DNA of 64,000 bases, taken from a virus. Shown here piece after piece: positions 41 through 32,037 of the stretch. Below the pieces are notes generated by a model. The model did no database searches. It was not told where the DNA came from and saw nothing but the letters and a program-made list of their open reading frames with translations. Position numbers and translations under genes: made by a program. Each line of letters starts with the position of its first letter. Within the stretch, counting starts at the first letter, position 1. Where the stretch lies: positions 32,001-96,000 of the IMG/VR virus record IMGVR_UViG_3300035698_017305; one strand, given 5' to 3'.

Positions 41-45
41 ATAAG

Positions 46-118
46 AGCTCGGGACGGGACTTGAACCCGCGATCACCAGATTGAAAGTCTGGTGGCTTAA
101 CCACTGGCCTACCCGAGC
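46..118 (-). tRNA. tRNA-Glu(TTC)
   Basis: Full cloverleaf: acceptor GCTCGGG/CCCGAGC, D arm GGC-CAGTGGTTAA-GCC, anticodon arm CCAGA-CTTTCAA-TCTGG, T arm GCGGG-TTCAAGT-CCCGT. No encoded CCA. Confidence 0.95.
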
Positions 119-3230: not shown

Positions 3231-5648
3231 CTACTCCTGGTCTTCTTCTTCTTCTGGTTCTTGCTCTCTCAACGCTTCTACCAACTCGTCTCCAATGGCG
3301 TCCAACATGGCTGCCGAGACAGTCCCTGCGTCTATGACAGCGGGTACCGGTGGTATTCTGAGTGTTGCCTCATTCAGTACTCTATGTACGGCCTGTATCG
3401 CCGCATCCCTAGCTGGGGTTTCCTCAGTCATAATTGACGGTGATATAACTATAGGCTCAAGTGCCTCACCTTCTGCGTCCAGGGCGGCTTGGAAACTATC
3501 CCTCATACCCTGTAACTCTGGGGAACCTTGTGCTAGCTCTACTATGCTTGGGTCTATCTCCAACACATCCTCAAGGGACTCCCCACTGCAACGGTCTACT
3601 TGCTCAACCGCAGAATCAACCTCAGCTATGTAATTCATAACTTCTTGGGCTCCTGGACTGTCCAGTGGGCCATACGGTACCGGTTCCTCATCTGCCATGT
3701 CCTCATCCCCAATGATCATCTCGTCTACAACCCTAGCAAACTCCCGGTCTTCCTCACTACGAATTTCAGTTGTTACACTAATCTCGTAAGGTTCAGCTCT
3801 CCCATATGACCAAGGCACAGTTGTTGAATCGTGGGCTGGAGGCATAGTCGGACTAGCGGCATCTACATGTCTCTGTGGAGCCCTGGGTGCTGCCACAAAC
3901 CCATACTGATTAAACCCATCACCACTGTCAGGTTGCCCCTCAACTACTTCAACTCCTACCTGCGGCGGTTCCACAGCGGCCTCAGATGCAGTTGAGTGTG
4001 CACATCTCGGGGATATGGTGCACCGAGCACAAGCTTGGGACCTATTTACCCTGTCGTAACAGAACTGTTGAGCAGCGACAATGGGGTAGTAGGGGCAGCC
4101 CGCTTGGTGGCATTCGGTACCCGATGAAGAAGATCCACTCACACGTCGTCTCTGTAAACAACTAATAGGTCCGGTCTCACCAATCTGTTGACCGTTTTGA
4201 CACGCGGTAATGCTCCGGTCTGTCCCTTCAGTGCAGTCATCCCTACTAGAACAAGTAGCACACTGAGACCAGTCACCTTCTTCTTCTAGATACTCAGCGC
4301 ACCTAGTGTAGCCAGAGTCGAAGTGGGGGCAATTCTCATCATCACAGACAGCGCAATCATGGTAACCGCTGTTTTCCCAACAACTATCCCGTCTGTTATC
4401 ATCGTCCTCATCTTCGTCATAGTCCTCATCATCACTGCCCCCATCACTGCCCCAGTTAGCAACCCTGACGTAGGAATCGTTGTCATTAGCATGGCGGAGG
4501 TAATCAGCTATTAGAGCCAATGCTGCCGCATACTCCTTGGTCTCTATCAGGTTCATTAACTGGTTGTCAATATTACCTAGGCAAGGGATACCAGAGTCAG
4601 AAATGTGCGGGTGACCAGAGCTCCGCCTGAACTTGGTGTCGTCCTGTTGATTTATCTTGAGGGCCCCAGTCCTGTCGTTGAGGGTTACCTCAAACCACCC
4701 CACGTCATACTTTACCCCATCATTCTCTCCAACGATGATGACCCTGGGGGTTGTGGCTACTATGTTGTCCTCTGATACCCTGATCTCTCTGTACACGTTG
4801 GGGATGAGTTTACACATAGCACCAAACTGGCCATCAAACTGAGACTTTTCCGAATCTTCAAAGTAGAGGTTGATGGACTTCATCTCTACCCTCTTCTTAT
4901 CACGCTCTCTACCCAGGACTAGGGCTTTTTGTCTCAGCTCCCTAATCTCGTGTCCAGCGGTGGTAATCTCCAGGTGAATGGCTGCAACCCTCTCCGATAC
5001 TGTCTTTCTACGCGTCCTGATGAAGTCCTCTTTGAGCTGTGTTGGGTCCCACACATGGTCTAACTCCTTGGTCAGCATCACCTCAATAGCCGCCCAAAGC
5101 CAGTTTACAGGGGCTTCTACGTCCGTACTGGACATATTTCGGAAACTTAGGGGTAAGAAGATATGACTACCCCCGTAAGAGAATCCGAAAAGTCCCGCCT
5201 CTTCTACTGGCGGGATTAGCTCAAAGGGTGTGCCTTCGTTTACATGCAAGGCTGTGTTGTATGGGCTTGAAATGACTCGTACCCCAGCCCCCAGGATTCT
5301 CCTTTTGGTCGCGTTTAGATCAGAGTAGAACTTAGCGTAATCAAATACTTTCGTTTTGACCTCAATGATCTTGTCCTTGACCTCGGTCCTGAACGTCTTC
5401 ATATCTCCTGACGTGTTGGATTGTACATATAGATGTAGTCCACGCCTCAGTACCATGTACCCTTCCGGATCTCGGTTGGTATACCCTTCAATCGGGTGAT
5501 CCCCAGCTAGTAACCGGGATAGTGGCTGTTGTAAGTCACATTCCGTATAGATGATTGGGATCCCCTTACTTGAGGAGAAGAACTCTAGTTGAGCCTTTAG
5601 TGCTGGGGGTGGTGCCGTTGTTGTGTTTTGTATCTCCGCTGTCGGCAT
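3231..5648 (-). CDS. large prokaryotic E2/UBC-like protein with coiled coil, Cys-rich repeats and acidic tail (system 1)
   Basis: UBC-like HPHISDSGIPCLGNI motif with catalytic-position Cys. Start moved to the ATG at 5648 (MPTAEIQ) because of an upstream AGGGAGG RBS. Confidence 0.75.
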   Translation of the reverse strand: MPTAEIQNTTTAPPPALKAQLEFFSSSKGIPIIYTECDLQQPLSRLLAGDHPIEGYTNRDPEGYMVLRRGLHLYVQSNTSGDMKTFRTEVKDKIIEVKTKVFDYAKFYSDLNATKRRILGAGVRVISSPYNTALHVNEGTPFELIPPVEEAGLFGFSYGGSHIFLPLSFRNMSSTDVEAPVNWLWAAIEVMLTKELDHVWDPTQLKEDFIRTRRKTVSERVAAIHLEITTAGHEIRELRQKALVLGRERDKKRVEMKSINLYFEDSEKSQFDGQFGAMCKLIPNVYREIRVSEDNIVATTPRVIIVGENDGVKYDVGWFEVTLNDRTGALKINQQDDTKFRRSSGHPHISDSGIPCLGNIDNQLMNLIETKEYAAALALIADYLRHANDNDSYVRVANWGSDGGSDDEDYDEDEDDDNRRDSCWENSGYHDCAVCDDENCPHFDSGYTRCAEYLEEEGDWSQCATCSSRDDCTEGTDRSITACQNGQQIGETGPISCLQRRRVSGSSSSGTECHQAGCPYYPIVAAQQFCYDRVNRSQACARCTISPRCAHSTASEAAVEPPQVGVEVVEGQPDSGDGFNQYGFVAAPRAPQRHVDAASPTMPPAHDSTTVPWSYGRAEPYEISVTTEIRSEEDREFARVVDEMIIGDEDMADEEPVPYGPLDSPGAQEVMNYIAEVDSAVEQVDRCSGESLEDVLEIDPSIVELAQGSPELQGMRDSFQAALDAEGEALEPIVISPSIMTEETPARDAAIQAVHRVLNEATLRIPPVPAVIDAGTVSAAMLDAIGDELVEALREQEPEEEEDQE

Positions 5649-14808: not shown

Positions 14809-15017
14809 TGCAAGGGTCCAAGGTACCAGCACCACTGTGTCCGAATCCTTTATGCCGCAATCAGTTCACCATACGAGTGAAGACTGTGGCAGGTGGGAAG
14901 CGCGCTGAATACATCTGTCCTAAATGCGCGGAGTCTTTTGAGATTCCTCGTGTTGTTATGGGGGAACCCAACCTAAAAAGAAGGGGGAGCACCATTGGCT
15001 CTCCCCCCTCTGACTAA
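14808..15017 (+). CDS. small zinc-ribbon protein
   Basis: CPNPLC...CPKC pairs. Confidence 0.6.
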   Translation: MQGSKVPAPLCPNPLCRNQFTIRVKTVAGGKRAEYICPKCAESFEIPRVVMGEPNLKRRGSTIGSPPSD

Positions 15018-15664
15018 CTGAACAGGTTGTAGGCAGTCATCTTCATGTCTTTCAACGTGAACATGTATCCTAGGTACTCGTCGTTGTCTATAAACCGGCA
15101 TATAGCCTCAGCCATCATACCCACAGTGAAGTGTACTAGGTTACGCGCAAGTGGGTACTCACACACATCCAGTCCGTCCTCTTCAACAGCGGGTCGTTTA
15201 AACCTAGGGTTCCAATACACCTCGGAGTAACCTTGAGCGGCCATCCCTCCGTGTAAGCAGGGCACCACACCATTTCCGCATGTGTCATGGATTAGTTGCC
15301 GGGAGTCCCAGTTGTCAAACGCATCCACCACAAGGCGGTTGCCCCTAAGTATCTTGAGTGCGTTCTTTTCAACCAGCCTACACGTCTCTATCACAGGTTT
15401 AACCCGGTATGCTTGGTAGATCATAGCCTGCATCACAGCAGCTTTGTTCTTCCCAATGAACCTCCTTTCAAAGTTCTGGTTACCTAGGTTATGAGATTCT
15501 ATCTTGTCATCATCCAGGAACCTGACGTTATTAAACCCCAGTTGGTACAGGATAGGAATTAGGTTTGACCCTAAAGCCCCCACGCCACACACCATTATCT
15601 GTGAGTTCTTTCTTCGTGTCAGGTCACCTCGATACAACTCCTCATGGGTTAGGGCATCCGCCAT
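15014..15664 (-). CDS. ThiF/E1-like enzyme (system 2)
   Basis: VCGVGALGS, DDDKIESHNLGNQ, GKNKA, VVDAFDN; candidate catalytic Cys in 'DVCEYPLARN'. Confidence 0.9.
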   Translation of the reverse strand: MADALTHEELYRGDLTRRKNSQIMVCGVGALGSNLIPILYQLGFNNVRFLDDDKIESHNLGNQNFERRFIGKNKAAVMQAMIYQAYRVKPVIETCRLVEKNALKILRGNRLVVDAFDNWDSRQLIHDTCGNGVVPCLHGGMAAQGYSEVYWNPRFKRPAVEEDGLDVCEYPLARNLVHFTVGMMAEAICRFIDNDEYLGYMFTLKDMKMTAYNLFS

Positions 15665-16136
15665 TTTTCCCTCTTATCTGCGGTAGACATGCCTGTCCGA
15701 GTATGGAGGCCCCTTCAAAGTAAAGGTTTCGTCCACGCATGGATAGCAGATCTATGCGGTTGTGGATTTGAATTGGTTGCTTATCCGGCAGGGGTAGAAA
15801 CAGGAAACACCCTATGGTTTGGAAGTCACCAGACGCTGATGCGATGATACATAGCAACGGTCTTCCCAATGCTATTGCCCACCCTGAGTGAGTCCTATGG
15901 TCTGTAGCACTCCAGTGCACGCCCCCACCCGGTGGATGCGTATGCAAGAAGCCAATGAAGTCACTGTGGGGTACAGACAGTTCGTGCAGTCTTTCCATAG
16001 TGACTTCAAAGTCGAAGTTAGCCGGTCCGTTGTCAGTGTAATCAATAGGTATCTTCTGGAGGAGGTGCTCAGCATCTATAGCCTCAGCGAAGTGCAAGGT
16101 CCATCCTAGTTCCCGGAACCTAGTCATAGTAGACAC
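15642..16136 (-). CDS. JAB/JAMM metalloprotease (system 2)
   Basis: 'GFLHTHP-x7-SATD' JAMM motif. Confidence 0.8.
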   Translation of the reverse strand: MSTMTRFRELGWTLHFAEAIDAEHLLQKIPIDYTDNGPANFDFEVTMERLHELSVPHSDFIGFLHTHPPGGGVHWSATDHRTHSGWAIALGRPLLCIIASASGDFQTIGCFLFLPLPDKQPIQIHNRIDLLSMRGRNLYFEGASILGQACLPQIRGKNGGCPNP

Positions 16137-16920
16137 CCCGATTGACCAGACCGCGTTTAGCGGCTTCTATAACCTGGGGGCTGACTCCCAGCTCATCCAT
16201 CATCTGTGAGGTGTGTAGGTTCCGTTCCACTATCATAGAGAACACTCTCCGCTCTAGGTCAAGCTGCTGTACAGCCTCAGTGAGAACTGTAGTCACGCCC
16301 TCACTGGATGTAACAGCCCGTACCGTACCACCAGTTGGGGCTGCAAACTCGGCGAATGCTTCCTCCAACGGTATATCGTGGTGTCCATGTACACATAGGG
16401 CGTGAATGATCACACCTTTCTTCTCAAATGCGGATGACACGTCATCCTCTGTGATACCTTCCCCCTGAGGGTAATGGTCATACTCCTTGTACTTGGGGAT
16501 CCCGTGTTGAGGGGCGTCACCAACCAGTATGCAGTACTTAAGGGAGTGCTCCCTCCATGGGTACTTCAGCGAGGCCGCCAACCCAGTCAGTACTGCCTCA
16601 GGAGCGTCAGCCCCTCCACCAGCGGTGAGCTTACGGATCATAGGTCCCACTTCGGATACCGGGACTAACCTACCATCCGTCATGTCCTTAACTATCCAGG
16701 CATCTGTGAAGTCTCGGTAGGCTGTCACCCCAACTTTGATGTCGGTGTCGGTGTCCTTGGCTACCTTGTTGATCATGCTGAGCATGGTTGTTTTGCAGTA
16801 TTCTAGATCTCTACCCATGGATCCAGTGGCGTCTAAGCAGAACACCAAATCCAGGGATGAGATGTTCTCTTTTTCACCAATCGTATTCATCATCATCTCC
16901 GTCATCATCGTCATCTCCAA
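16120..16920 (-). CDS. vWA-domain protein with C-terminal HTH-like segment
   Basis: MIDAS 'FCLDATGSMG', 'GGGADAPEA', 'ILVGDAPQH'. Exact start uncertain. Confidence 0.9.
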   Translation of the reverse strand: MEMTMMTEMMMNTIGEKENISSLDLVFCLDATGSMGRDLEYCKTTMLSMINKVAKDTDTDIKVGVTAYRDFTDAWIVKDMTDGRLVPVSEVGPMIRKLTAGGGADAPEAVLTGLAASLKYPWREHSLKYCILVGDAPQHGIPKYKEYDHYPQGEGITEDDVSSAFEKKGVIIHALCVHGHHDIPLEEAFAEFAAPTGGTVRAVTSSEGVTTVLTEAVQQLDLERRVFSMIVERNLHTSQMMDELGVSPQVIEAAKRGLVNRGVYYD

Positions 16921-17743
16921 TAGAGTCGGCCCCGTTGGTCCCGGGAACGCTCACTCTGTAGATCAGTTTTCTACGTTCCCCCTCAGCCACTACGCTTCCT
17001 AGTGCGGTTAGGTCATACACCTTGTCGGTACCATTCAGACATATCCCGGCGTTTACCACCTGGAAGTTAGTCTTTCTGACCCTGGTGAAGTAGGGGTTGC
17101 CAGCCCTAGACTTCCATTCGATCACAAGGTGGTCTCCTTGGTCCATCAGACGCATGAGCTTTCCGCCTGAGGCTAAGAGAGCGTCTCCTACCAACTCCTC
17201 TACAGATTTCTTGCGCCGTGCTTTCTCGTGCTGTACAGCCATGGCTAGGGCTAACAAGTCTGTGGGGGTCATGAACTTGGCTTTCTCTACAGTACCTGCC
17301 TTGAACATCTCTAACATGACAGGGGTTTGATCGAACCCTATCCCAGCAGGTTCCCAGTAGTACCAGTTGGTATGATCGGAGGCTACCCTGACCACATCAA
17401 ACCTTTCCGCACCCTCGACCAAGTGGATCGGAATGATCTCATCGTTCCAGGCACCAAACCAGATGCCGTCTTCTTCATAGAACAAACGTACATTAGCCTT
17501 CACAGGGAGGCACTTCAGGTAGTCGTCCTTCTCTATCTCATCTGCGGGCCGTTGAATTCTTAACCAAGGGGGAGCACATCTGAACAGATGCCACCCATGA
17601 GATGGATTACCCTGCACCTTGAGGGTTACCAGGGTCTTGTCCATTATCACTTTGATGCGCCTACTCCCTAGGAAAGGAGCTACCACGTCAGTAGGTGGTT
17701 TGGCACGCTCCTTTTGGATCATCTTTTCGACAAGACTATCCAT
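16874..17743 (-). CDS. hypothetical protein of the TROVE/Ubl operon
   Basis: 289 aa ORF with AAAGGAG RBS, between TROVE and vWA; ends 'GICL..D..YDL..L.SVV.E' plus an acidic tail. Confidence 0.75.
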   Translation of the reverse strand: MDSLVEKMIQKERAKPPTDVVAPFLGSRRIKVIMDKTLVTLKVQGNPSHGWHLFRCAPPWLRIQRPADEIEKDDYLKCLPVKANVRLFYEEDGIWFGAWNDEIIPIHLVEGAERFDVVRVASDHTNWYYWEPAGIGFDQTPVMLEMFKAGTVEKAKFMTPTDLLALAMAVQHEKARRKKSVEELVGDALLASGGKLMRLMDQGDHLVIEWKSRAGNPYFTRVRKTNFQVVNAGICLNGTDKVYDLTALGSVVAEGERRKLIYRVSVPGTNGADSIGDDDDDGDDDEYDW

Positions 17744-17784
17744 AGGACTCTCCTTTCATTGTTTAGGAATGTGTGGGTAGGGAG

Positions 17785-17858
17785 GGAGAATGACGGGATT
17801 CGAACCCGCAGTACCTGGAGTCACAGTCCAGTGCCATAACCGTTAGGCTACACTCTCC
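17785..17858 (-). tRNA. tRNA-His(GTG)
   Basis: 8-bp acceptor with G-1:C73 (GGAGAGTG/CATTCTCC), anticodon arm CTGGA-CTGTGAC-TCCAG, T arm GCGGG-TTCGAAT-CCCGT. No encoded CCA. Confidence 0.95.
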
Positions 17859-17887
17859 ATAAATTCTCCGCCCCCTACCCACACTAA

Positions 17888-19606
17888 TTAGGCTGCTCTA
17901 TCGTCTACGGGCAGTGGTGTGTCCATGATCTCTTGCAGAGTGTTCCTAAGAGTTCTGCGAGACAGGAACCTGATAACATCCGGGACCGCAATGAGGTCAG
18001 TGCTGTCGTCCAGGTTGAACACTTGAATGGCGGTGCCAGCGGTGGCCGCAGCATCACGTACACAGCGGTGTCTCTTGTCTTCCAGACTGCCCCACCTTCC
18101 CAGTTTAATCAAGCAAATACTTACCTCATCTGATCCAGGAGGAGCCGTCTCCAGATACTTGGGCCACACATCCGGGAACCGAGGAGCACTATTCTCTCCT
18201 TCATCCGTGATGATAATGACGTTTTCCGCAAAGTCACCACTCCTCATCATCTCGTCGATGCCTACACCAACAGAGGTGGATCCAAGTGCTCTTACCCTAC
18301 GGAACGCCGTAGTCCAGTCCTGTAGCGTACCTCTGCCCGGTACATTGATCTTGTCGGCTTTCACCTCGAAGGTGTATGTGTGCAGAGGAGTACCCGCAAC
18401 CATGGAGGCCGAAATCATAGACCCCAAGGTCTTGGCCAGCTCGATTGCAGCACCCATGGACGTACTACAGTCAACCAGAAGAACGGTCGGCTTGTTGATA
18501 ACCTTCTTGACGCGGGCGTCAGACACTTGGAGAATTTTCTCCTTGATATCTGCGCTGACAGCGGTAGATTCCGCAGCTTTCACCGCCTTTAAGGTATCAA
18601 CCCGACCAGACTTCTTGGCCTTCTTCAGTCGAGACTCCAAGAGCTTGGCAAGGTCCGGGTTGTCCCATGCACCTTTCTTCCTGAATGCTTCCACATTCAT
18701 CAGAAGCTCCTGAGGAGACATTACACTGATCAGTGCTGCCATAACAGCAGGAGTCTGAGTAGTCACCGAGCCTACCGCGATTGGGTAGGGGATTTTGTAC
18801 TTGGCGATCAATTCAGCCTGCTCAGCAGGGTCACTTGTGGTACTCAGCACCTTCTGGTAGTACAGCTTAGGAGTCCTGTGTTCGAGTGGATTCTTCTCAA
18901 ACAGGGCTGACTGTACCCATCCAACTGGTGGTGTATGCGTCCAACTGTACAGAGACTTCAGTGCGCTACCAGCTCTGACAGCGATGGCATCAAACATTTC
19001 TGTGTTGTCCTCCAGGTCACGGAGTAGGCCACCCACAACCTTGCTGACCCTCTTAGGAATGTTCTTAGCTCCCGGGATACCGGTTACCTGGAACACTGAG
19101 GTCATGTAGGTGCCGTCCCGATTCTTCTCAAACCGGAGGTCTGCATCTTTTGCTCTGGGAATCTTGGCTTTGACCAACCTCAGGAATGCTTCCCGTTCCG
19201 TAGCCGTGGAAGTGCCGTTCCGTAGCTTTGGGTTTAGGTCCGTCTTTGCCTTCATGATGTCCTTGTCGTCAGACAATTTCACCACAACCTTACCTTCCTT
19301 GAGCAGGTTGATGATCCGGTGAATCTCATACACTGGGAACCTGGGCAGTAAGGCAGCCCCAACATCCCTGAACAGGACGTCATCAGGCATACCTCGGAGT
19401 AAGTACGCTGTCATCAGTTCCTTGTGATCCCGGATCTCCGTGTTGTCCATGGCCCATACAGCGAGGTGGGCGAAGAATTCCGGGTCCGCTTCGAACATTG
19501 TCCGGAATAACTCATGAGATCCCTTGCCGATATTCCGGTGTGGAGTACTCATGAAAGCCTTTAGCATGTCCAATCGGACATCAGCTTCTCTGGTTTCGGT
19601 CGCCAT
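17888..19606 (-). CDS. TROVE-domain (Ro60/Rsr-like) RNA-binding protein with C-terminal vWA
   Basis: 572 aa; 'DVRLDMLKAFMSTPHR', 'DPEFFAHLAVW', 'YKIPYPIAVG', 'MSPQEL'; vWA 'LLVDCSTSM' and 'IIITDEGEN'. Confidence 0.8.
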   Translation of the reverse strand: MATETREADVRLDMLKAFMSTPHRNIGKGSHELFRTMFEADPEFFAHLAVWAMDNTEIRDHKELMTAYLLRGMPDDVLFRDVGAALLPRFPVYEIHRIINLLKEGKVVVKLSDDKDIMKAKTDLNPKLRNGTSTATEREAFLRLVKAKIPRAKDADLRFEKNRDGTYMTSVFQVTGIPGAKNIPKRVSKVVGGLLRDLEDNTEMFDAIAVRAGSALKSLYSWTHTPPVGWVQSALFEKNPLEHRTPKLYYQKVLSTTSDPAEQAELIAKYKIPYPIAVGSVTTQTPAVMAALISVMSPQELLMNVEAFRKKGAWDNPDLAKLLESRLKKAKKSGRVDTLKAVKAAESTAVSADIKEKILQVSDARVKKVINKPTVLLVDCSTSMGAAIELAKTLGSMISASMVAGTPLHTYTFEVKADKINVPGRGTLQDWTTAFRRVRALGSTSVGVGIDEMMRSGDFAENVIIITDEGENSAPRFPDVWPKYLETAPPGSDEVSICLIKLGRWGSLEDKRHRCVRDAAATAGTAIQVFNLDDSTDLIAVPDVIRFLSRRTLRNTLQEIMDTPLPVDDRAA

Positions 19607-19653
19607 ATGACTTTCTCCTTTTCATTTCTGGACCGCTACCGTTTTATAGGTAT

Positions 19654-19714
19654 AAAAAAAGATCGCAGGAAGTCACCGAGGTAGGTCCAATACCACGGAA
19701 GTGCTTGCGATCTT
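19654..19714 (-). other. long hairpin followed by a U-tract between the RNA array and TROVE (terminator/attenuator or divergent small RNA)
   Basis: Minus strand AAGATCGCA...TGCGATCTT outer stem, inner CAC/GTG, CG/CG and GGT/ACC pairs, then TTTTT. Confidence 0.5.
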
Positions 19715-19746
19715 CCCCATGTGGGGACTGTCTAATGAATATGGTT

Positions 19747-19825
19747 AGAACAGCTAGCTAGTCGTGGGAACCGTTGTTTTTCGCCAAATGAAAATGTATG
19801 TTCCGACTGTAGGGCTAGCTGTTCT
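19747..19825 (-). ncRNA. unit 1: scaffold + isolated anticodon-like stem-loop
   Basis: Terminal stem AGAACAGCTAGC/GCTAGCTGTTCT; payload TTTTC-ATTTGGC-GAAAA (5 bp, 7-nt loop, central TTG). Confidence 0.75.
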
Positions 19826-19838
19826 TTTCTGACTTGGT

Positions 19839-19987
19839 TTCTGGGGTAGCGAGTCTGTAGGCCCAATTGATTTGTTAGTCTGATCCGTAGTCAGATGCCT
19901 TAACCACTTGGCCACATATGATTTCTCACATGATGGGATTCGAACCCACGTTAAAATGTATGGCCCACATGTAGGGCTACCCTAGAA
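19839..19987 (-). ncRNA. unit 2: scaffold + permuted tRNA-Arg(ACG)-like domain opened at the variable loop
   Basis: Order: T arm GTGGG-TTCGAAT-CCCAT; closed acceptor CATGTGA-GAAA-TCATATG; D arm GCC-AAGTGGTTAA-GGC; anticodon arm TCTGA-CTACGGA-TCAGA. Confidence 0.85.
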
Positions 19988-19999
19988 CTGTATAGTGTT

Positions 20000-20149
20000 T
20001 TTCGAGAGTGCTAGTCGAAGGACCCATTGTAAAACTGGATGCTCTACCATTGAGCTACTTGGGCTCAAGCCCAAGACAGGAATTGAACCTGCGCCTTCCC
20101 CTTGGTATGGGACGTTTGTGTATGGCCCGTCTGTAGGGCACTCTCGAAA
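20000..20149 (-). ncRNA. unit 3: scaffold + permuted tRNA-Gly(ACC)-like domain opened between D and anticodon arms
   Basis: Order: TCCC-ATACCAA-GGGG; AGGC; T arm GCAGG-TTCAATT-CCTGT; closed acceptor CTTGGGC-TTGA-GCCCAAG; D arm TA-GCTC-AATGGTA-GAGC. Confidence 0.8.
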
Positions 20150-20163
20150 TTGTGTATAAATGC

Positions 20164-20317
20164 TATGGAACTAGCGAGTCGTAAAGCCCATTGATCTTTA
20201 ATCGCTTGTGCTAAATACAAGTGCCTTTACCAATTTGGCCACTCTGGGTGAGCCCCAGAGGAAGGATTCGAACCTCCAAAATGATATGTATGGCTTAACT
20301 GTAGGGCTAATTCCATA
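20164..20317 (-). ncRNA. unit 4: scaffold + permuted tRNA-Leu-like domain opened before the T arm
   Basis: Order: T arm GGAGG-TTCGAAT-CCTTC; closed acceptor CTCTGGG-GCTCA-CCCAGAG; D arm GCC-AAATTGGTAAA-GGC; CTTGT-ATTTAGC-ACAAG; short variable-arm-like hairpin GAT-TAAAG-ATC. Confidence 0.8.
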
Positions 20318-20329
20318 TTGAAACTGTTA

Positions 20330-20469
20330 AGGTGCGGCTAGCTAGTCGAGAGACCCATATTAGGTACACCGAGGTGGAATTGAACCACCGACTTTTTGCT
20401 TAATAGGCAAATGCTCTATCCAACTGAGCTATTGGTATGTATGGCCTAACTGTAGGGCTAACCGAACCT
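20330..20469 (-). ncRNA. unit 5: scaffold + unpermuted tRNA-Asn(ATT)-like cloverleaf (20365-20438)
   Basis: ATACCAA / TA-GCTC-AGTTGGATA-GAGC / TTTGC-CTATTAA-GCAAA / AAGTC / GGTGG-TTCAATT-CCACC / TCGGTGT-A-CCT, attached to the scaffold through the acceptor end. Confidence 0.85.
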
Positions 20470-20492
20470 ATATTTGATTTCCAAAGAACTGA

Positions 20493-20664
20493 ACATTAGA
20501 GAAGATGGGGCAGCTAGTCGAGAGATCCCAAGTAACTTAACTAAGCTACTCCCCCGTAGTGGTGGGGGAGGCTGGAATTGAACCAGCGACACTTTACTTT
20601 CACGTAAATGCTCTACCATTGTTTGTATGATCCAACTGTAGGGCTACCTCATCATCTCTAATGT
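20493..20664 (-). ncRNA. unit 6: scaffold + permuted tRNA-Phe-like domain opened in the D loop, with internal ACCA
   Basis: Order: AATGGTA-GAGC; TTTAC-GTGAAA-GTAAA; GTGTC; T arm GCTGG-TTCAATT-CCAGC; CTCCCCC-ACCA-CTAC-GGGGGAG; TA-GCTT-AG. Confidence 0.85.
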
Positions 20665-20674
20665 CAAAGAATTA

Positions 20675-20810
20675 AACTGTGAGCGGGTAACTAGTCGAAG
20701 GGCCTTTGTAACGTTCTGCTTCATCAGCAGCCCCCGTATGGTGGAGGCTCAGGGAGTTAAACCCCGAACTGTTATGTACGGTCCCACTGTAGGGTTACCC
20801 CGTCACAGTT
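20675..20810 (-). ncRNA. unit 7: scaffold + permuted tmRNA/tRNA-Ala-like acceptor-T domain
   Basis: T arm CGGGG-TTTAACT-CCCTG; AGCCTCC-ACCA-TAC-GGGGGCT with G3:U70 and A73; no D stem. Begins at the stop codon of the upstream Ubl gene. Confidence 0.8.
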
Positions 20811-21036
20811 ATTTACCGAACTTACCGTCTGGCCTCAAGTGTACTGTGCCGGACGCTTCAAATGGGTCTGCAACAAACGAGTTGAATGTTGAGACGTCTT
20901 TGCTGAGTGCACCGGCTACTGCCAGCTTAAGGTCTGCTTCATCGAAGACATCTCCTAAGTCCAACTCCTCCACTGGGAGTGTTTGGGATTGTCCGTCAAC
21001 GAACACGTTTATGAATTGGAAGTTATTACGTTCCAT
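20809..21036 (-). CDS. small ubiquitin-like (beta-grasp) protein candidate (system 2), ends -KFG-K
   Basis: 75 aa from the ATG at 21036 (AAGGAG RBS); 'INVFVDGQSQTLP...LDLG...DLKLAVAGAL...VHLRPDGKFGK'. Co-oriented with TROVE-vWA-JAB-E1. Confidence 0.6.
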   Translation of the reverse strand: MERNNFQFINVFVDGQSQTLPVEELDLGDVFDEADLKLAVAGALSKDVSTFNSFVADPFEASGTVHLRPDGKFGK

Positions 21037-21083
21037 CTTGATCTCCTTATGGCGTACTTTATACCTGATTCTCAGATGGCCCG

Positions 21084-22103
21084 TCAAGAACTTTTTATTT
21101 TTGATTTCCCCCACATGACCGGTGCAGGTTTTCCGTCCTTGAGTATGGGCTTAGCCTTGTGTTTCTTCTTTGGCCTGGGGGGAGGGGCTGGTAGCTTGTC
21201 AGACTTCCTGATCTTATCCAACGTTAGCTTAGCCACGGCCTCTCCTATAGCCAGTGCCTGTGAGTCCCTGGGGAATAGATGGCGTTTACCATCAGATAAC
21301 CCGTAGTGCCGGTTACCTTCCCAGAATATATAGCTACCATCCCGTAGTTTACTGTAGTCTAGTGCTACGAAATCGTGTCCGAGCAGTTGGCCCGCCCGCA
21401 ATACTTGATCAGCATTAGGCTCACCGCCCCTCAAGAACATCCTGTCCTCGTGCAGGGCCTGTGGGTGTGTAAGTGTATCCCTCATGTGAACGTTCCACTT
21501 GTCAGCGACAACCAACTGGCGCAGAATCAGTTGATCTCCTATGACAAACGTTCTCCACTTCCGGTAGTATCCATCTTCACTCTGGTAATCTGCATACTTG
21601 ATAGCCAGGGTTAGCTTTACCCTACTGTCTTTGATTACCTTAGCCGCCTCTTTACTGTTGTGTACGAGGTGCATGTGACGGCCACCATGGTCACTGTCTC
21701 TTCTTAGAATGGCTGGGTAGCCAATAGATAGAGCAGTGAATGATGAGAACAGTTGATGCTGCGGAGTTGGGATACCATTATCTTCCCACACCCTATACAT
21801 CGTAGAGTGTTTGTTATCGAACTTACTGATTGGTTGTATCACAGGCAGGCCAATCTCGCGTGCCCGGACTTCTATCTGTTTGGCTTTGGAGAGGTACTCT
21901 TGCTTGGCTCCATACGACCAGAACAAGATCGCATCATAGTCGAACAACTTGGGCATGGCCGTGAACTGGGGACATATAGTTGTCCATTTCAGCCCAGCCT
22001 TTTGAAACCCGTCAGTCAGGGATTTACCTGCGGGGTTACGGGTAAACATCGCTTCTGTGTTAGTTACCACTAGAACTCTAGGTCCCTGACCGACTGGTGC
22101 CAT
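21084..22103 (-). CDS. ATP-grasp enzyme (paralog of 12184..13209)
   Basis: 'YPAILRRDSDHGG', 'YYRKWRTFVIG', 'FVALDYS', 'IFWEGN'. Confidence 0.8.
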   Translation of the reverse strand: MAPVGQGPRVLVVTNTEAMFTRNPAGKSLTDGFQKAGLKWTTICPQFTAMPKLFDYDAILFWSYGAKQEYLSKAKQIEVRAREIGLPVIQPISKFDNKHSTMYRVWEDNGIPTPQHQLFSSFTALSIGYPAILRRDSDHGGRHMHLVHNSKEAAKVIKDSRVKLTLAIKYADYQSEDGYYRKWRTFVIGDQLILRQLVVADKWNVHMRDTLTHPQALHEDRMFLRGGEPNADQVLRAGQLLGHDFVALDYSKLRDGSYIFWEGNRHYGLSDGKRHLFPRDSQALAIGEAVAKLTLDKIRKSDKLPAPPPRPKKKHKAKPILKDGKPAPVMWGKSKIKSS

Positions 22104-28173: not shown

Positions 28174-28746
28174 ATGGAGTCAGTACCGTACAGTGTTCAA
28201 CTAGGGCGTGAGGGAGCAGGTAAGGACCATGACTGGGGTAAGTGGAAGGTAGAGATCACCTTTGCCAAAGACAGAACCCCCGGAGGACCTAACTCTTTTG
28301 TGGTAGAGGTATATGAAAATGGCATAGCCTTGGGTGCAGCAGGAGATATGAGAGCTTACCTATGTAGAGACATCGAAGAGAAGGATCTTGGGTGTCAAAA
28401 GGTATTCTCCGCCCTGTACGTTGACTTCAAGACCATAGCGGTGTGCCCTCACTGTAAACGGACCTGGAACCCCAACAGGTTAACCACGACCGTGGTATAC
28501 AGGCTGTCCACAGACAAAGCCGCTATCGCCATAGCCAAGATTATGCGGAGGGTTGAGTTTGATGCGGACATCTTTATCAAGTACCACCCCTCTGATATAC
28601 GTTACCAGGAAATGGTTAGAGAGCTGGGGTTGGACAAGGCTGCTACCCTACAAGGACTACTGGTATACAAGAAGTCAGACCTGATAAATGCCATATCAAC
28701 TGGAAAAGGTTTGGAAGAAGAGTTGAAAGGACTGCTCAGTGCGTAA
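28174..28746 (+). CDS. hypothetical protein with Cys pairs
   Basis: LCR..GCQK and VCPHCK. Confidence 0.7.
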   Translation: MESVPYSVQLGREGAGKDHDWGKWKVEITFAKDRTPGGPNSFVVEVYENGIALGAAGDMRAYLCRDIEEKDLGCQKVFSALYVDFKTIAVCPHCKRTWNPNRLTTTVVYRLSTDKAAIAIAKIMRRVEFDADIFIKYHPSDIRYQEMVRELGLDKAATLQGLLVYKKSDLINAISTGKGLEEELKGLLSA

Positions 28747-30625: not shown

Positions 30626-32037
30626 TCCATATCAAGTAGTTCGTTCCCACACTCACTCGGTTCTTTGTCAGTCCGAACCCTCCTCTGCCTAGGAAAGGTT
30701 ACGGCGTTGGATATCTCTCCACGGGAAAGGTACTTCCTTTTAGCGTACTCCACTTCCCAAACCTGCGGGTACATACTCGGATCGGCATTATCTTTAGCCC
30801 AGTCGTCCGTAAAGCCTGAACCACAGTTACAGATAAAGACTGGAGTTCCTTTCGAATCGTACTGGTATAACGCCACTGATCCCACATGCCCCATATGTTT
30901 CCCTGTTCCATATTCTCCCATCCCTTCATCTGGATTCCAATAAATTACGAAGTCATCTTCAAAGATTGGCTTCACCTTACACGACACCGCTGATGGCCTG
31001 TACGGTTTCCCATGAAACATTAGGCCCTGTTCACCCATGATACCGTCTGGGTCTGTCACCACAAACCCTTCCCACTTGGCTTCAACCGCGATAGCTAACG
31101 CTACTGCCACCGGGTCCTTCATGTCTACCTCGGTCCTATCTGGGCCACTTACTCCTGATAGTAGGTTCCCCGTACTTAGAACTTCTGGGGGTAGAAGCTG
31201 CTCAAATCCTCGACACCCGGTGATCTTGTCCTTAACCCAACCGATCCGTTCCCTCATGTTCATGCTGCGGATGTAGTCATTCCCATCTACAAATGCTACG
31301 TCCCACACGTAGTAGAACAGCTTACCCTGCTTAGCTTGGCGCTCTACCGCGTCATTAGCATTGGATATACCGGTTACGTAGTCGAAGTTATCATCTTCCT
31401 TAGAGGCTACCAGTTCCCCCAGTAGTACTGTGTTGTGGGGGATCTTACCCATAGCACACCAAGTCTCTAACGACCTGACTATGTGGTCAAACTTCTCACT
31501 CCAAGTGATTGACTCCGTTTTCTTCTTATCCAGAAGTCTCCGGGAGTACAGCCTAGCTTTGCCGTCATCTTGGATCACTGCCACGCACATAAGTCCATCC
31601 CTCTTACGCATGAACCACGCGGTCTTGTCCACCAGGATCTTCTTCATCATAGCTTTGCTGGGGTTGTGGGCTGGCTTATAGAATGCCCAGTTCTGTGGTA
31701 GTGGTCCGTCGAATACAAACCCCTCATACTTTGTCATGTTCAGTTTCTCTACTTCTTCCTGCTTCACCGACCCGTCACTGTTTAACCCAATGTATCCCTC
31801 CCTCTGTTTCATCTCAGCCTTACGGGTTGCCGTGTTGATAGCTACCTGTTCCGGGCTGATCTCATTTGTCTTACCAACGTTCTTGGCTAAACAAACATCT
31901 GTTGTAGACTGCATCTTCCCACCCTTGATACCCCAAGTGGCAGTGACTGATGAGCCCTCTGTCTCAATCGACCACGCCTTTGTTTTGGCCGTCCGGCCTC
32001 TGAACTGCTCAAGATCTACACGCATAGCTACTCCCAA
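30622..32037 (-). CDS. ATP-dependent DNA ligase with N-terminal WGR domain
   Basis: WGR-like 'KAWSI...VTATWGIKG'; motif I 'RKRDG', 'LLGEL', 'YVWDV', 'WEGFVV', 'KVKP', OB-fold 'GSGF' and 'FPR'. Confidence 0.9.
   Translation of the reverse strand: MGVAMRVDLEQFRGRTAKTKAWSIETEGSSVTATWGIKGGKMQSTTDVCLAKNVGKTNEISPEQVAINTATRKAEMKQREGYIGLNSDGSVKQEEVEKLNMTKYEGFVFDGPLPQNWAFYKPAHNPSKAMMKKILVDKTAWFMRKRDGLMCVAVIQDDGKARLYSRRLLDKKKTESITWSEKFDHIVRSLETWCAMGKIPHNTVLLGELVASKEDDNFDYVTGISNANDAVERQAKQGKLFYYVWDVAFVDGNDYIRSMNMRERIGWVKDKITGCRGFEQLLPPEVLSTGNLLSGVSGPDRTEVDMKDPVAVALAIAVEAKWEGFVVTDPDGIMGEQGLMFHGKPYRPSAVSCKVKPIFEDDFVIYWNPDEGMGEYGTGKHMGHVGSVALYQYDSKGTPVFICNCGSGFTDDWAKDNADPSMYPQVWEVEYAKRKYLSRGEISNAVTFPRQRRVRTDKEPSECGNELLDME

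Follow-up and report, generated by a model that had tools for sequence, protein, structure and literature searches.

The window analysed here (the whole 64,000-nucleotide stretch of DNA examined, positions 32,001 to 96,000 of the virus record IMGVR_UViG_3300035698_017305, from a salt-lake phage) contains seven tandem small-RNA units on the minus strand, from 20810 to 19747, and the array ends 141 nucleotides (nt) upstream of an open reading frame (ORF) for a 572-amino-acid protein with a predicted Ro60 fold. The units share one handle, which is joined to different payloads, and were named A to G in transcription order, corresponding to units 7 to 1 of the original prediction made from the letters alone. 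That prediction had placed the array at 19839-20810; the repeats located there are real, but the RNA is on the minus strand and unit G (19747-19825) falls outside these limits. Indeed, the tRNA call (ARAGORN and Rfam, 20438-20365), the T loops (UUCRANY on the minus strand only), all matches of the covariance model of the handle (R1, described below) and the neighbouring genes lie on the minus strand. The features of the array are the following.

19747..20810, minus strand: whole array, seven handle-plus-payload units (R1 matches, repeats, folds)
20675..20810, minus strand: unit A (minimum-free-energy fold, arm coordinates; R1 56.6 bits)
20493..20664, minus strand: unit B, join inside the D loop (R1 75.8 bits)
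20330..20465, minus strand: unit C, unpermuted cloverleaf at 20365-20438 with anticodon AUU, acceptor-end join (ARAGORN, Rfam tRNA, classifier)
20164..20317, minus strand: unit D, variable-region join (R1 71.9 bits)
20000..20149, minus strand: unit E, join between the D and anticodon arms, at 26/27 (R1 98.6 bits)
19839..19987, minus strand: unit F, variable-region join (ARAGORN tRNA-Arg(ACG) on the circularised payload, no trimming)
19747..19825, minus strand: unit G, handle only (fold; R1 43.6 bits), outside the coordinates of the original prediction

Anatomy of the units

All the units adopt a common fold (outer helix, conserved 6x5 internal loop, second helix, multiloop) with the same frame, which comprises from 5' to 3' P1, the internal loop, P2, a box, the payload and the returning strands. 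P1 is a variable outer helix of 12-22 base pairs (bp). In the array, the asymmetric internal loop sets 5' CCUACA opposite 3' GACU(A/C) and the box after P2 reads (A/G)UACA(U/A/C); at the level of the family, these elements take the forms 5' CC-N-AC-R facing 3' R-ACU-N and UACA-N-AC, respectively. Readings of the internal loop as a k-turn or as a bulge-helix-bulge (BHB) were rejected by inspection. The fold energy of six units is 4-7.6 standard deviations below that of mononucleotide-shuffled sequence, and that of unit C 1.9 standard deviations below. The string CCTACA-N(8-14)-ATACA is found six times in the array (0.3 matches expected in the window) and once more at 28647-28669 on the plus strand, unrelated to the array, these seven matches being the total for the entire 132.8-kb virus record; the R1 matches in the window are the seven units and nothing else. 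Short contigs from four salt-lake DNA metagenomes cover parts of the stretch and are identical to the window, and therefore bring neither variants nor compensatory changes.

tRNA-like heads and their join positions

The arms were located by an explicit finder anchored on the T arm, and ARAGORN was run on circularised payloads as an independent check. This check is not prone to false calls, since a tRNA was returned for 125 of 150 payloads of the family and for none of the 150 shuffled or 150 reversed ones. Typing the units by the majority class of their ARAGORN junctions was also tried and proved too crude. We read units A to F as tRNA-like bodies with five distinct join positions and unit G as a handle only. 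The central claim of the original prediction, one scaffold carrying tRNA bodies at five join positions, is thus borne out, and the number five stands after the reassignment of unit A explained below.

Two units open in the variable region. In unit D, the T arm (20261-20277) precedes an acceptor hairpin (20242-20260, loop GCUCA), a class-II-like D arm with a 3-bp stem (20223-20239) and an anticodon arm (20205-20221) with the ochre-type anticodon UUA. Unit F repeats this order, with a T arm (19933-19949), an acceptor hairpin (19915-19932, loop GAAA), a class-II-like D arm (19897-19912) and an anticodon arm (19879-19895, anticodon ACG). In unit E, which had been described as opening between the D and anticodon arms, the finder gave precisely that order: an anticodon-like arm (20097-20113, loop AUACCAA), the variable (V) loop AGGC, the T arm (20076-20092), an acceptor hairpin (20058-20075, loop UUGA) and the D arm (20041-20055). 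Another reading of unit E, as the tRNA-mimicking Y RNA YrlA plus a variable arm, with the linkers as analogue of the anticodon stem, is disfavoured by weak linker pairing: the two linkers of 26/27-type units pair over 3.24 bp, against 2.81 bp in shuffles, and this small excess favours the anticodon-arm reading.

The head of unit B opens inside the D loop and runs from the 3' part of the D loop with the D 3' strand (20610-20620) through an anticodon arm with a 6-nt loop (20593-20608), the V loop, the T arm (20571-20587) and a closed acceptor hairpin (20549-20570, loop ACCACUAC, that is ACCA-CUAC) to the D 5' strand with the 5' part of the D loop (20539-20546). The earlier assignment of this unit agrees with the arm finder and with the ARAGORN solutions, whose commonest class (62 of 168) puts the junction there, and the same wiring exists at two other loci of the family (L095:2471-2624 and L078:2896-3032). 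Unit C is unpermuted and attached through its acceptor end, as had been foreseen; it is the sole unit to pass the Rfam tRNA model (RF00005; 60.8 bits for a 29-bit limit), its 5' acceptor strand overlaps the UACA box of the handle and its 3' tail is ACCU. Other matches of this model, at 19925-20064 (27.9 bits) and 20068-20248 (27.7 bits), were discarded as chimeras across neighbouring units.

Unit A was the one to be reassigned. The original prediction had grouped it with D and F among the units opening just before the T arm, which is correct for these two. In unit A, the head consists of a T arm (20750-20766), an acceptor hairpin (20729-20749) with G3:U70 and the closing loop ACCAUAC (ACCA-UAC), and a small hairpin (20718-20728), and is enclosed by an 8-bp closing stem (20766-20774 with 20709-20716). 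Because it has no anticodon arm and this stem encloses the head, we read its join as the anticodon side, in the manner of YrlA; the circularised unit gave no ARAGORN call. Unit G, predicted to show only an anticodon-like hairpin, is a handle bearing a 4-bp hairpin whose 7-nt loop is anticodon-like, and has no T arm. The short loops said to close the acceptor stems (GAAA, UUGA, GCUCA, ACCA-CUAC and ACCA-UAC) were all recovered.

The Ro60-like protein

17888..19606, minus strand: Ro60-like protein of 572 amino acids, HEAT-repeat ring plus vWA (AlphaFold2 and Foldseek)

The AlphaFold2 model of this protein, built from 25 homologues, has a predicted local distance difference test score (pLDDT) of 81. 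The top 12 Foldseek matches among PDB structures are all Ro60/TROVE proteins aligned over the full length (E 6.5e-10 to 8.7e-8), including Thermus phage phiLo Ro60, Xenopus and human Ro60 and Deinococcus Rsr, with phiLo Ro60 (9KOP) as the best match. The residues of the vWA metal site (metal-ion-dependent adhesion site, DxSxS...T...D) are invariant among the 25 homologues and the protein also matches phrog_850, "RNA-binding protein" (7.7e-10). A comparison by sequence with solved structures gave no significant match; the Ro60 identity therefore comes from the fold search, matches by sequence to TROVE and to these structures being absent. We predict from the model that the protein has a Ro60 fold (TROVE plus vWA).

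Distribution of the family and covariation of the handle

A single-sequence search of viral contigs with the 572-amino-acid protein returned no relatives. An alignment-based search found homologues (27-40% identity) on 22 viral contigs, and relatives are encoded in 421 stretches of bacterial species-representative genomes (Planctomycetota, Cyanobacteria, Chloroflexota, Desulfobacterota, Acidobacteriota, Bacteroidota and others). Upstream of the Ro60-like genes, a regular expression for the handle matched 45 times on the gene strand and three times on the other. In an alignment of 32 units (A2) covering the handle and T arm, pairing involves 92% of cells (67% in shuffled sequences, 33-44% with slid partners), and 20 of 21 pairs show compensatory changes, among which those of P1 are biased, because the expression used to choose the units required P1 pairing, and those of P2 and the T arm are free of this selection.

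The covariance model R1, trained on units selected in this way, retrieved 296 units (E<=0.1) in 91 phage and bacterial loci beside Ro60-like genes. Most of them lie within 3.5 kb upstream of the gene, about 12 of the 289 outside the window are on the strand opposite to it, and many arrays comprise 2 to about 10 units. Among 150 aligned units, of which 120 were outside the training set of R1, several letters of the loop and box are nearly invariant (CC in 149 and 143, A in 148, UACA in 150/150, ACU in 148-150). Eight of the nine R1 matches in three complete or large bacterial genomes (23.5 Mb) fall at the Ro60-like locus, and across 121 genomes of one phylum the array was found only in the one genome with the protein, apart from one orphan match on a short contig, in a search that scored 27 candidates per genome and whose negatives are accordingly weak. 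The array most likely represents a divergent branch of the Ro60/Y RNA (YrlA) particles, in which the handle is new and tRNA is joined in several topologies, and by analogy its handle would dock on the ring protein encoded just downstream.

Wiring classes across the family

The 150 best units of the family were assigned to wiring classes by a heuristic classifier, which left about a third of them unclear. The 26/27 join of unit E accounts for 37 units, the unpermuted acceptor-end join of unit C for 28, the YrlA-like join for 14, the variable-region join of units D and F for 11 and the D-loop join for three (unit B and its two counterparts mentioned above). Wiring classes also occur in Planctomycetota, Cyanobacteria, Chloroflexota, Bacteroidota and other phages, and their order is kept in related genomes (L055/L071, L057/L060 and L070/L084).

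The 11 units of the variable-region class (type III), from nine sources, share a consensus of P1, P2, T arm, 7-bp acceptor, D arm and anticodon arm, in which 29 of 36 pairs have changed in a compensatory way; in the 26/27 class (type II, 29 units), the same holds for 23 of 30 pairs. These changes affect the T, acceptor, D and anticodon stems. The putative anticodon loops carry U33 in 31/37, 11/11 and 23/28 units and R37 in 33/37, 11/11 and 28/28 units of the 26/27, variable-region and unpermuted classes, respectively. Canonical V loops (AGGUU or AGGUC) follow the anticodon arm in the 26/27 and unpermuted classes, and in the latter the invariant UACA-N-AC box of the handle itself serves as the 5' acceptor strand. 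Since the classes recur in the family with compensatory changes and anticodon-loop signatures, which argues against a recent capture by the phage, the wirings are, on comparative sequence evidence, old and maintained classes of one RNA family present in many bacteria and large phages.

Unpermuted units at six loci (L041, L024, L030, L083, L113 and L020, in arrays upstream of position 3501) receive ordinary tRNA gene calls, with anticodons that include AUC, AUU and AAG and with "Leu" or "Ser" units of 72-77 nt devoid of a long variable arm. These calls are likely mis-annotations in public genomes, and matter for annotation in general, as standard tools take unpermuted units for ordinary tRNA genes, some with odd anticodons.

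Comparison with known systems

Particles made of Ro60 and Y RNAs are conserved from bacteria to humans. The closest published relative of the array is YrlA, a tRNA mimic with a closed acceptor. It is bound by Rsr, tRNA enzymes recognise its tRNA-like module (PMC4201824; 10.1101/312249), and in Mycobacterium smegmatis, where its acceptor has 7 bp, it is nicked by RNase P and receives CCA (PMC4201824). As in the YrlA/Rsr systems of bacteria and mycobacteriophages (RF02553), the small RNAs of the array are encoded next to a gene for a Ro60-fold protein, with more than one RNA per locus, and appear to combine a stem module with a tRNA-like module made of a T arm, a closed acceptor hairpin and a D arm, which RNase P could open where the acceptor has 7 bp. 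However, the handle is different (CC-N-AC / RACU / UACA), the arrays reach 7-10 units and the protein is too diverged for Pfam TROVE. The single topology that the original prediction attributed to YrlA agrees with the literature on Y RNAs, which describes one YrlA topology, joined on the anticodon side, and a differently oriented Yrn1 (PMC4201824), whereas five joins exist here, most of them keeping a complete anticodon arm. Unit A approximates the YrlA module (T arm, closed acceptor, D arm, anticodon-stem join) without a clear D arm, and units B to F join elsewhere. No YrlA match at the gathering score was found in 15 related loci. The Salmonella rsr operon includes RtcB/RtcA, and the operon described here JAB and E1-like genes.

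The Ro60-contact motif of Y RNAs (GNCGAAN0-1G; PMC4201824) has a counterpart on the plus strand of the array. Indeed, GNCGAANG is present there only on that strand, at 20014 and 20694, as the complement of the RNA, and the complement of the 3' handle strand in units E and A (20014-20021 and 20694-20701, plus strand) reads GUCGAAGG, which matches the motif. This match probably follows from the complementarity of the helix strands. The 3' handle strand CGACUAG may resemble the 3' strand of vertebrate Y RNA stems; the Rfam Y_RNA model has no match on the array.

A phage precedent is given by Thermus phage phiLo (PMC12135203; 9KOP, 9L5Y), whose Ro60-fold protein binds two Yrl RNAs encoded directly upstream, as well as the host PNPase; these RNAs are of the stem-bulge type with a CGAA motif, and the accessible part of that report makes no mention of tRNA-like heads or of a permutation series. 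A survey of jumbo phages refers in passing to TROVE proteins with a tRNA-like partner (PMC7824862).

The order 3' half, closed acceptor, 5' half also recalls the permuted tRNA genes of Cyanidioschyzon merolae and Thermofilum, as cited in 10.1101/312249, where junctions likewise fall at several cloverleaf positions. These genes yield working tRNAs through BHB cleavage and a circular intermediate, whereas the units described here occur in bacteria and phages, are flanked by a conserved, protein-associated handle and show no BHB by inspection. Finally, units A and B resemble two-piece transfer-messenger RNA (tmRNA; RF04321) in the succession of T arm, 3' acceptor strand, ACCA, short spacer and 5' acceptor strand, unit A sharing in addition G3:U70 with the discriminator A73. 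The scores against this model (26.4 bits for B and 13.4 for A, for a 47-bit threshold) cover the T arm and acceptor only; unlike permuted tmRNA, the units have no mRNA-like part, and the phage has its own tmRNA elsewhere.

In the searchable literature, we found nothing on this handle, on arrays this large or on such a series of join positions, and this branch of the Ro60/Y RNA systems is apparently large and undescribed.

Proposed function and alternative explanations

We consider it probable that the array encodes seven Y-RNA-like partner RNAs of the phage Ro60-like protein, with a handle for docking and heads that mimic tRNA. From the anatomy, covariation, gene linkage and predicted protein fold, we infer their binding, processing and function as follows. 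The constant handle (P1, internal loop, P2 and UACA-N-AC box) would dock on the Ro60-like ring and the variable head would mimic tRNA, the handle leaving the tRNA body through a different outward-pointing element according to the unit: the anticodon side (A), the D loop (B), the acceptor end (C), the variable arm (D and F), the 26/27 hinge (E) or none (G). The join position would decide which tRNA surface stays free, and a canonical anticodon loop is left free in most heads. The analogy with Rsr/YrlA and phiLo Ro60/Yrl makes it probable that the heads display tRNA surfaces for tRNA-binding factors, which would be tethered, gated or sequestered at the ring; candidates are nucleases, modification or repair enzymes and RNase P. 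The units with a 7-bp acceptor, especially A and B with ACCA in their loops, may be opened by RNase P, since M. smegmatis YrlA is cut in this way.

Several points weigh against this proposal. The Pfam TROVE hidden Markov model gives no match to the 572-amino-acid protein, no unit reaches the Rfam YrlA threshold of 69 bits (the best scores are 36.4 for E, 25.2 for B and 16.2) and the contact motif GNCGAAN0-1G is absent from the transcribed strand of the array. Unit A has no convincing D arm, and the hairpin of unit E can also be read, less well, as a variable arm, ARAGORN giving either solution according to trimming. The selection of units by regular expression affects both the P1 covariation of A2 and the training of R1, and the wiring classes come from a heuristic. 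Lastly, several heads are complete cloverleaves with canonical anticodon loops, which is compatible with real tRNA precursors.

This last point leads to a different view, in which the units are precursors of working tRNAs (Arg-ACG, the ochre suppressor UUA, Asn-AUU and Gly-ACC) and the handle is a processing module, with RNase P opening and CCA addition. M. smegmatis YrlA, which RNase P cuts and which gains CCA (PMC4201824), offers a model for such processing. Moreover, unit C is a full cloverleaf (60.8 bits), circularised F and D are tRNAs for ARAGORN, the anticodon loops are canonical, the phage also has a CUA suppressor tRNA, and NCCA is enriched after open acceptors (9/28, about 0.4 expected) and at the start of closed loops (7/95, 1.5 expected). 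However, no pathway for excision and religation at the D loop, at position 26/27 or within the V region is known from bacteria or phages, and neither BHB geometry, by inspection, nor any scoring ribozyme family accompanies the units. Bodies and anticodons are mismatched (the unpermuted "Leu" and "Ser" units have 72-77 nt and no long variable arm), the A34 anticodons AUU and ACC are unusual for bacteria, the anticodon loop of unit B is 6 nt long, and a tRNA core is missing from A and G. Furthermore, the acceptor 5' strand of the unpermuted units is the invariant box of the handle, 15 canonical tRNAs are encoded separately by the phage and the units track the Ro60-like gene across genomes, so that the whole of this claim appears improbable to us. 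We give about twice as much credit, while still holding it unlikely as a joint claim, to a more specific form of tRNA mimicry: each of the five wirings would free another tRNA face (anticodon loop, elbow, or acceptor end with CCA), while its handle is kept on the Ro60-like ring, and the array would offer several baits at once, sensing or soaking up tRNA-directed enzymes (anticodon nucleases, modification enzymes, RNase P or synthetases), with a read-out coupled to the ubiquitin-like, JAB and E1 genes of the operon, and serving as a phage counter-defence against host tRNA-cleaving immunity.

As regards the origin of the permutations, the original prediction had put forward the repeated capture of circularised or ligated tRNA, or of cDNA, into an existing scaffold, each unit being a separate event in this phage lineage. 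In keeping with such captures, the closed acceptor loops of A and B contain the mature 3' end ACCA, and the payload sequences differ, B and C being the sole close mutual pair among 150. However, the same five wirings are shared by distant bacteria and other phages, with their order kept in related genomes, and the classes therefore predate this phage. Closed acceptor loops with NCCA also hold a spacer of 3-4 nt before G1, where a ligated circle would have none, and unpermuted units use the handle box as acceptor 5' strand, which is not expected of an independently captured tRNA. The likeness of B and C (about 80% identity over 49 nt despite different joins) fits a rearrangement between paralogues equally well and does not decide the origin, as its score is within the range of cross-genome matches. 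We thus regard capture as a little less probable even than tRNA precursors. The spacer after ACCA may instead be the remnant of a tandem tRNA dimer trimmed at both ends, hence an origin by duplication and deletion, as suggested for the YrlA permutation by Wang et al. (10.1101/312249).

The alternative of a cut-and-ligate module releasing tRNA-like RNAs found no support either. No BHB was seen by inspection (no formal BHB search was made), the handle having a 6x5 internal loop and a 1x1 mismatch where a BHB is defined by two 3-nt bulges 4 bp apart, and among ribozyme families searched on the array only Twister-sister appeared, at 17.4 bits (E 1.9), below its threshold of 34. Selection to expose different tRNA faces, also raised at that time, fits the conservation of each class across phyla. 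That the units might be decaying tRNA pseudogenes or a functionless tRNA-derived repeat could be argued from their imperfect arms (an A:C mismatch in the acceptor stem of C, U56 in the T loop of A, the 6-nt loop of B), yet it is scarcely credible. Indeed, the neutral decay that the original prediction named as a refutation was not seen: every stem class shows compensatory changes (in the type III and type II pairs counted above), the single-stranded letters of the handle are nearly invariant in 150 units, and hundreds of genomes have the units at the same place next to one protein family.

Under the tRNA-mimic proposal that we prefer, the same protein handle has been attached to tRNA in at least five ways, each of them kept, which makes the family a natural experiment that can tell which surfaces of tRNA have to remain free. 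The array offers ways to test Y RNAs as tethers, gates or decoys for tRNA enzymes, as well as designs from nature in which a tRNA fold is mounted on another RNA.

Gene neighbourhood and additional observations

The array and the Ro60-like gene belong to a block of genes on the same strand, whose order is the 75-amino-acid ORF, the array, the Ro60-like gene, tRNA-His, the 289-amino-acid ORF and the vWA, Prok-JAB and ThiF/E1-like genes. Its other annotated features are the following.

20812..21036, minus strand: ORF of 75 amino acids ending ...GKFGK, directly upstream of unit A, candidate ubiquitin-like protein
19653..19713, minus strand: terminator-like element between the array and the Ro60-like gene, 8-bp closing stem then U7 (fold z -2.7)
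16874-17743, minus strand: protein of 289 amino acids, function unassigned
16120-16920, minus strand: vWA protein (Pfam VWA_4, 4.9e-8)
15642-16136, minus strand: Prok-JAB (Pfam, 3.8e-4, below the curated cut-off)
15014-15664, minus strand: ThiF/E1-like protein (Pfam ThiF, 1.3e-23)

The bacterial locus L011 has a similar gene order with two RNA units, and the position of the GKFGK ORF, which has no Pfam match, is that of a 75-amino-acid ORF ending VFG in this locus. The resemblance of the block formed by the 75-amino-acid ORF and the vWA, JAB and E1 genes to the L011 order suggests that the Ro60-like particle may be connected with ubiquitin-like tagging, in which the 75-amino-acid protein is only a candidate. 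In a cyanobacterium-like locus (L008), a single payload-less handle unit (L008:3876-3947) lies upstream of the Ro60-like gene, and a gene for a Tpt1/KptA-type RNA 2'-phosphotransferase follows this gene, at the site of JAB/E1 in other loci.

Consensus scans did not list the hairpin and U7 of the terminator-like element, and found no promoter in 19400-21400; a TTGACG-18-TATAAA element seen by eye 5' of the small ORF fails the rule of the promoter scan. The spacers after A and B (20665-20677 and 20482-20494, minus strand) have in common the 13-nt motif GUU(U/C)A(A/G)UUCUUUG, which may be a processing or spacing signal between units.

Directly 3' of the Ro60-like gene, a canonical tRNA-His(GUG) (window 17771-17884, minus strand) is enclosed by a 12-bp leader/trailer helix (GUGUGGGUAGGG with CCCUACCCACAC), without the handle loop and without an R1 match; in bacterial relatives, this site is often occupied by a short handle unit (e.g. 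L011:5586-5666 and L056:5215-5352). The 15 canonical tRNAs of the phage record (G000:C1:17832-32118) lie mostly before the start of the window, with tRNA-Glu at window positions 45-118; they include a CUA tRNA of the amber suppressor type, and the separate tmRNA encodes the tag AENQLPIAA. This layout is echoed in a Phycisphaerales locus (L071:19-1549), where about 17 canonical tRNA genes are directly upstream of a handle array and a Ro60-like gene; in the phage, the tRNA cluster is on the same strand as the array.

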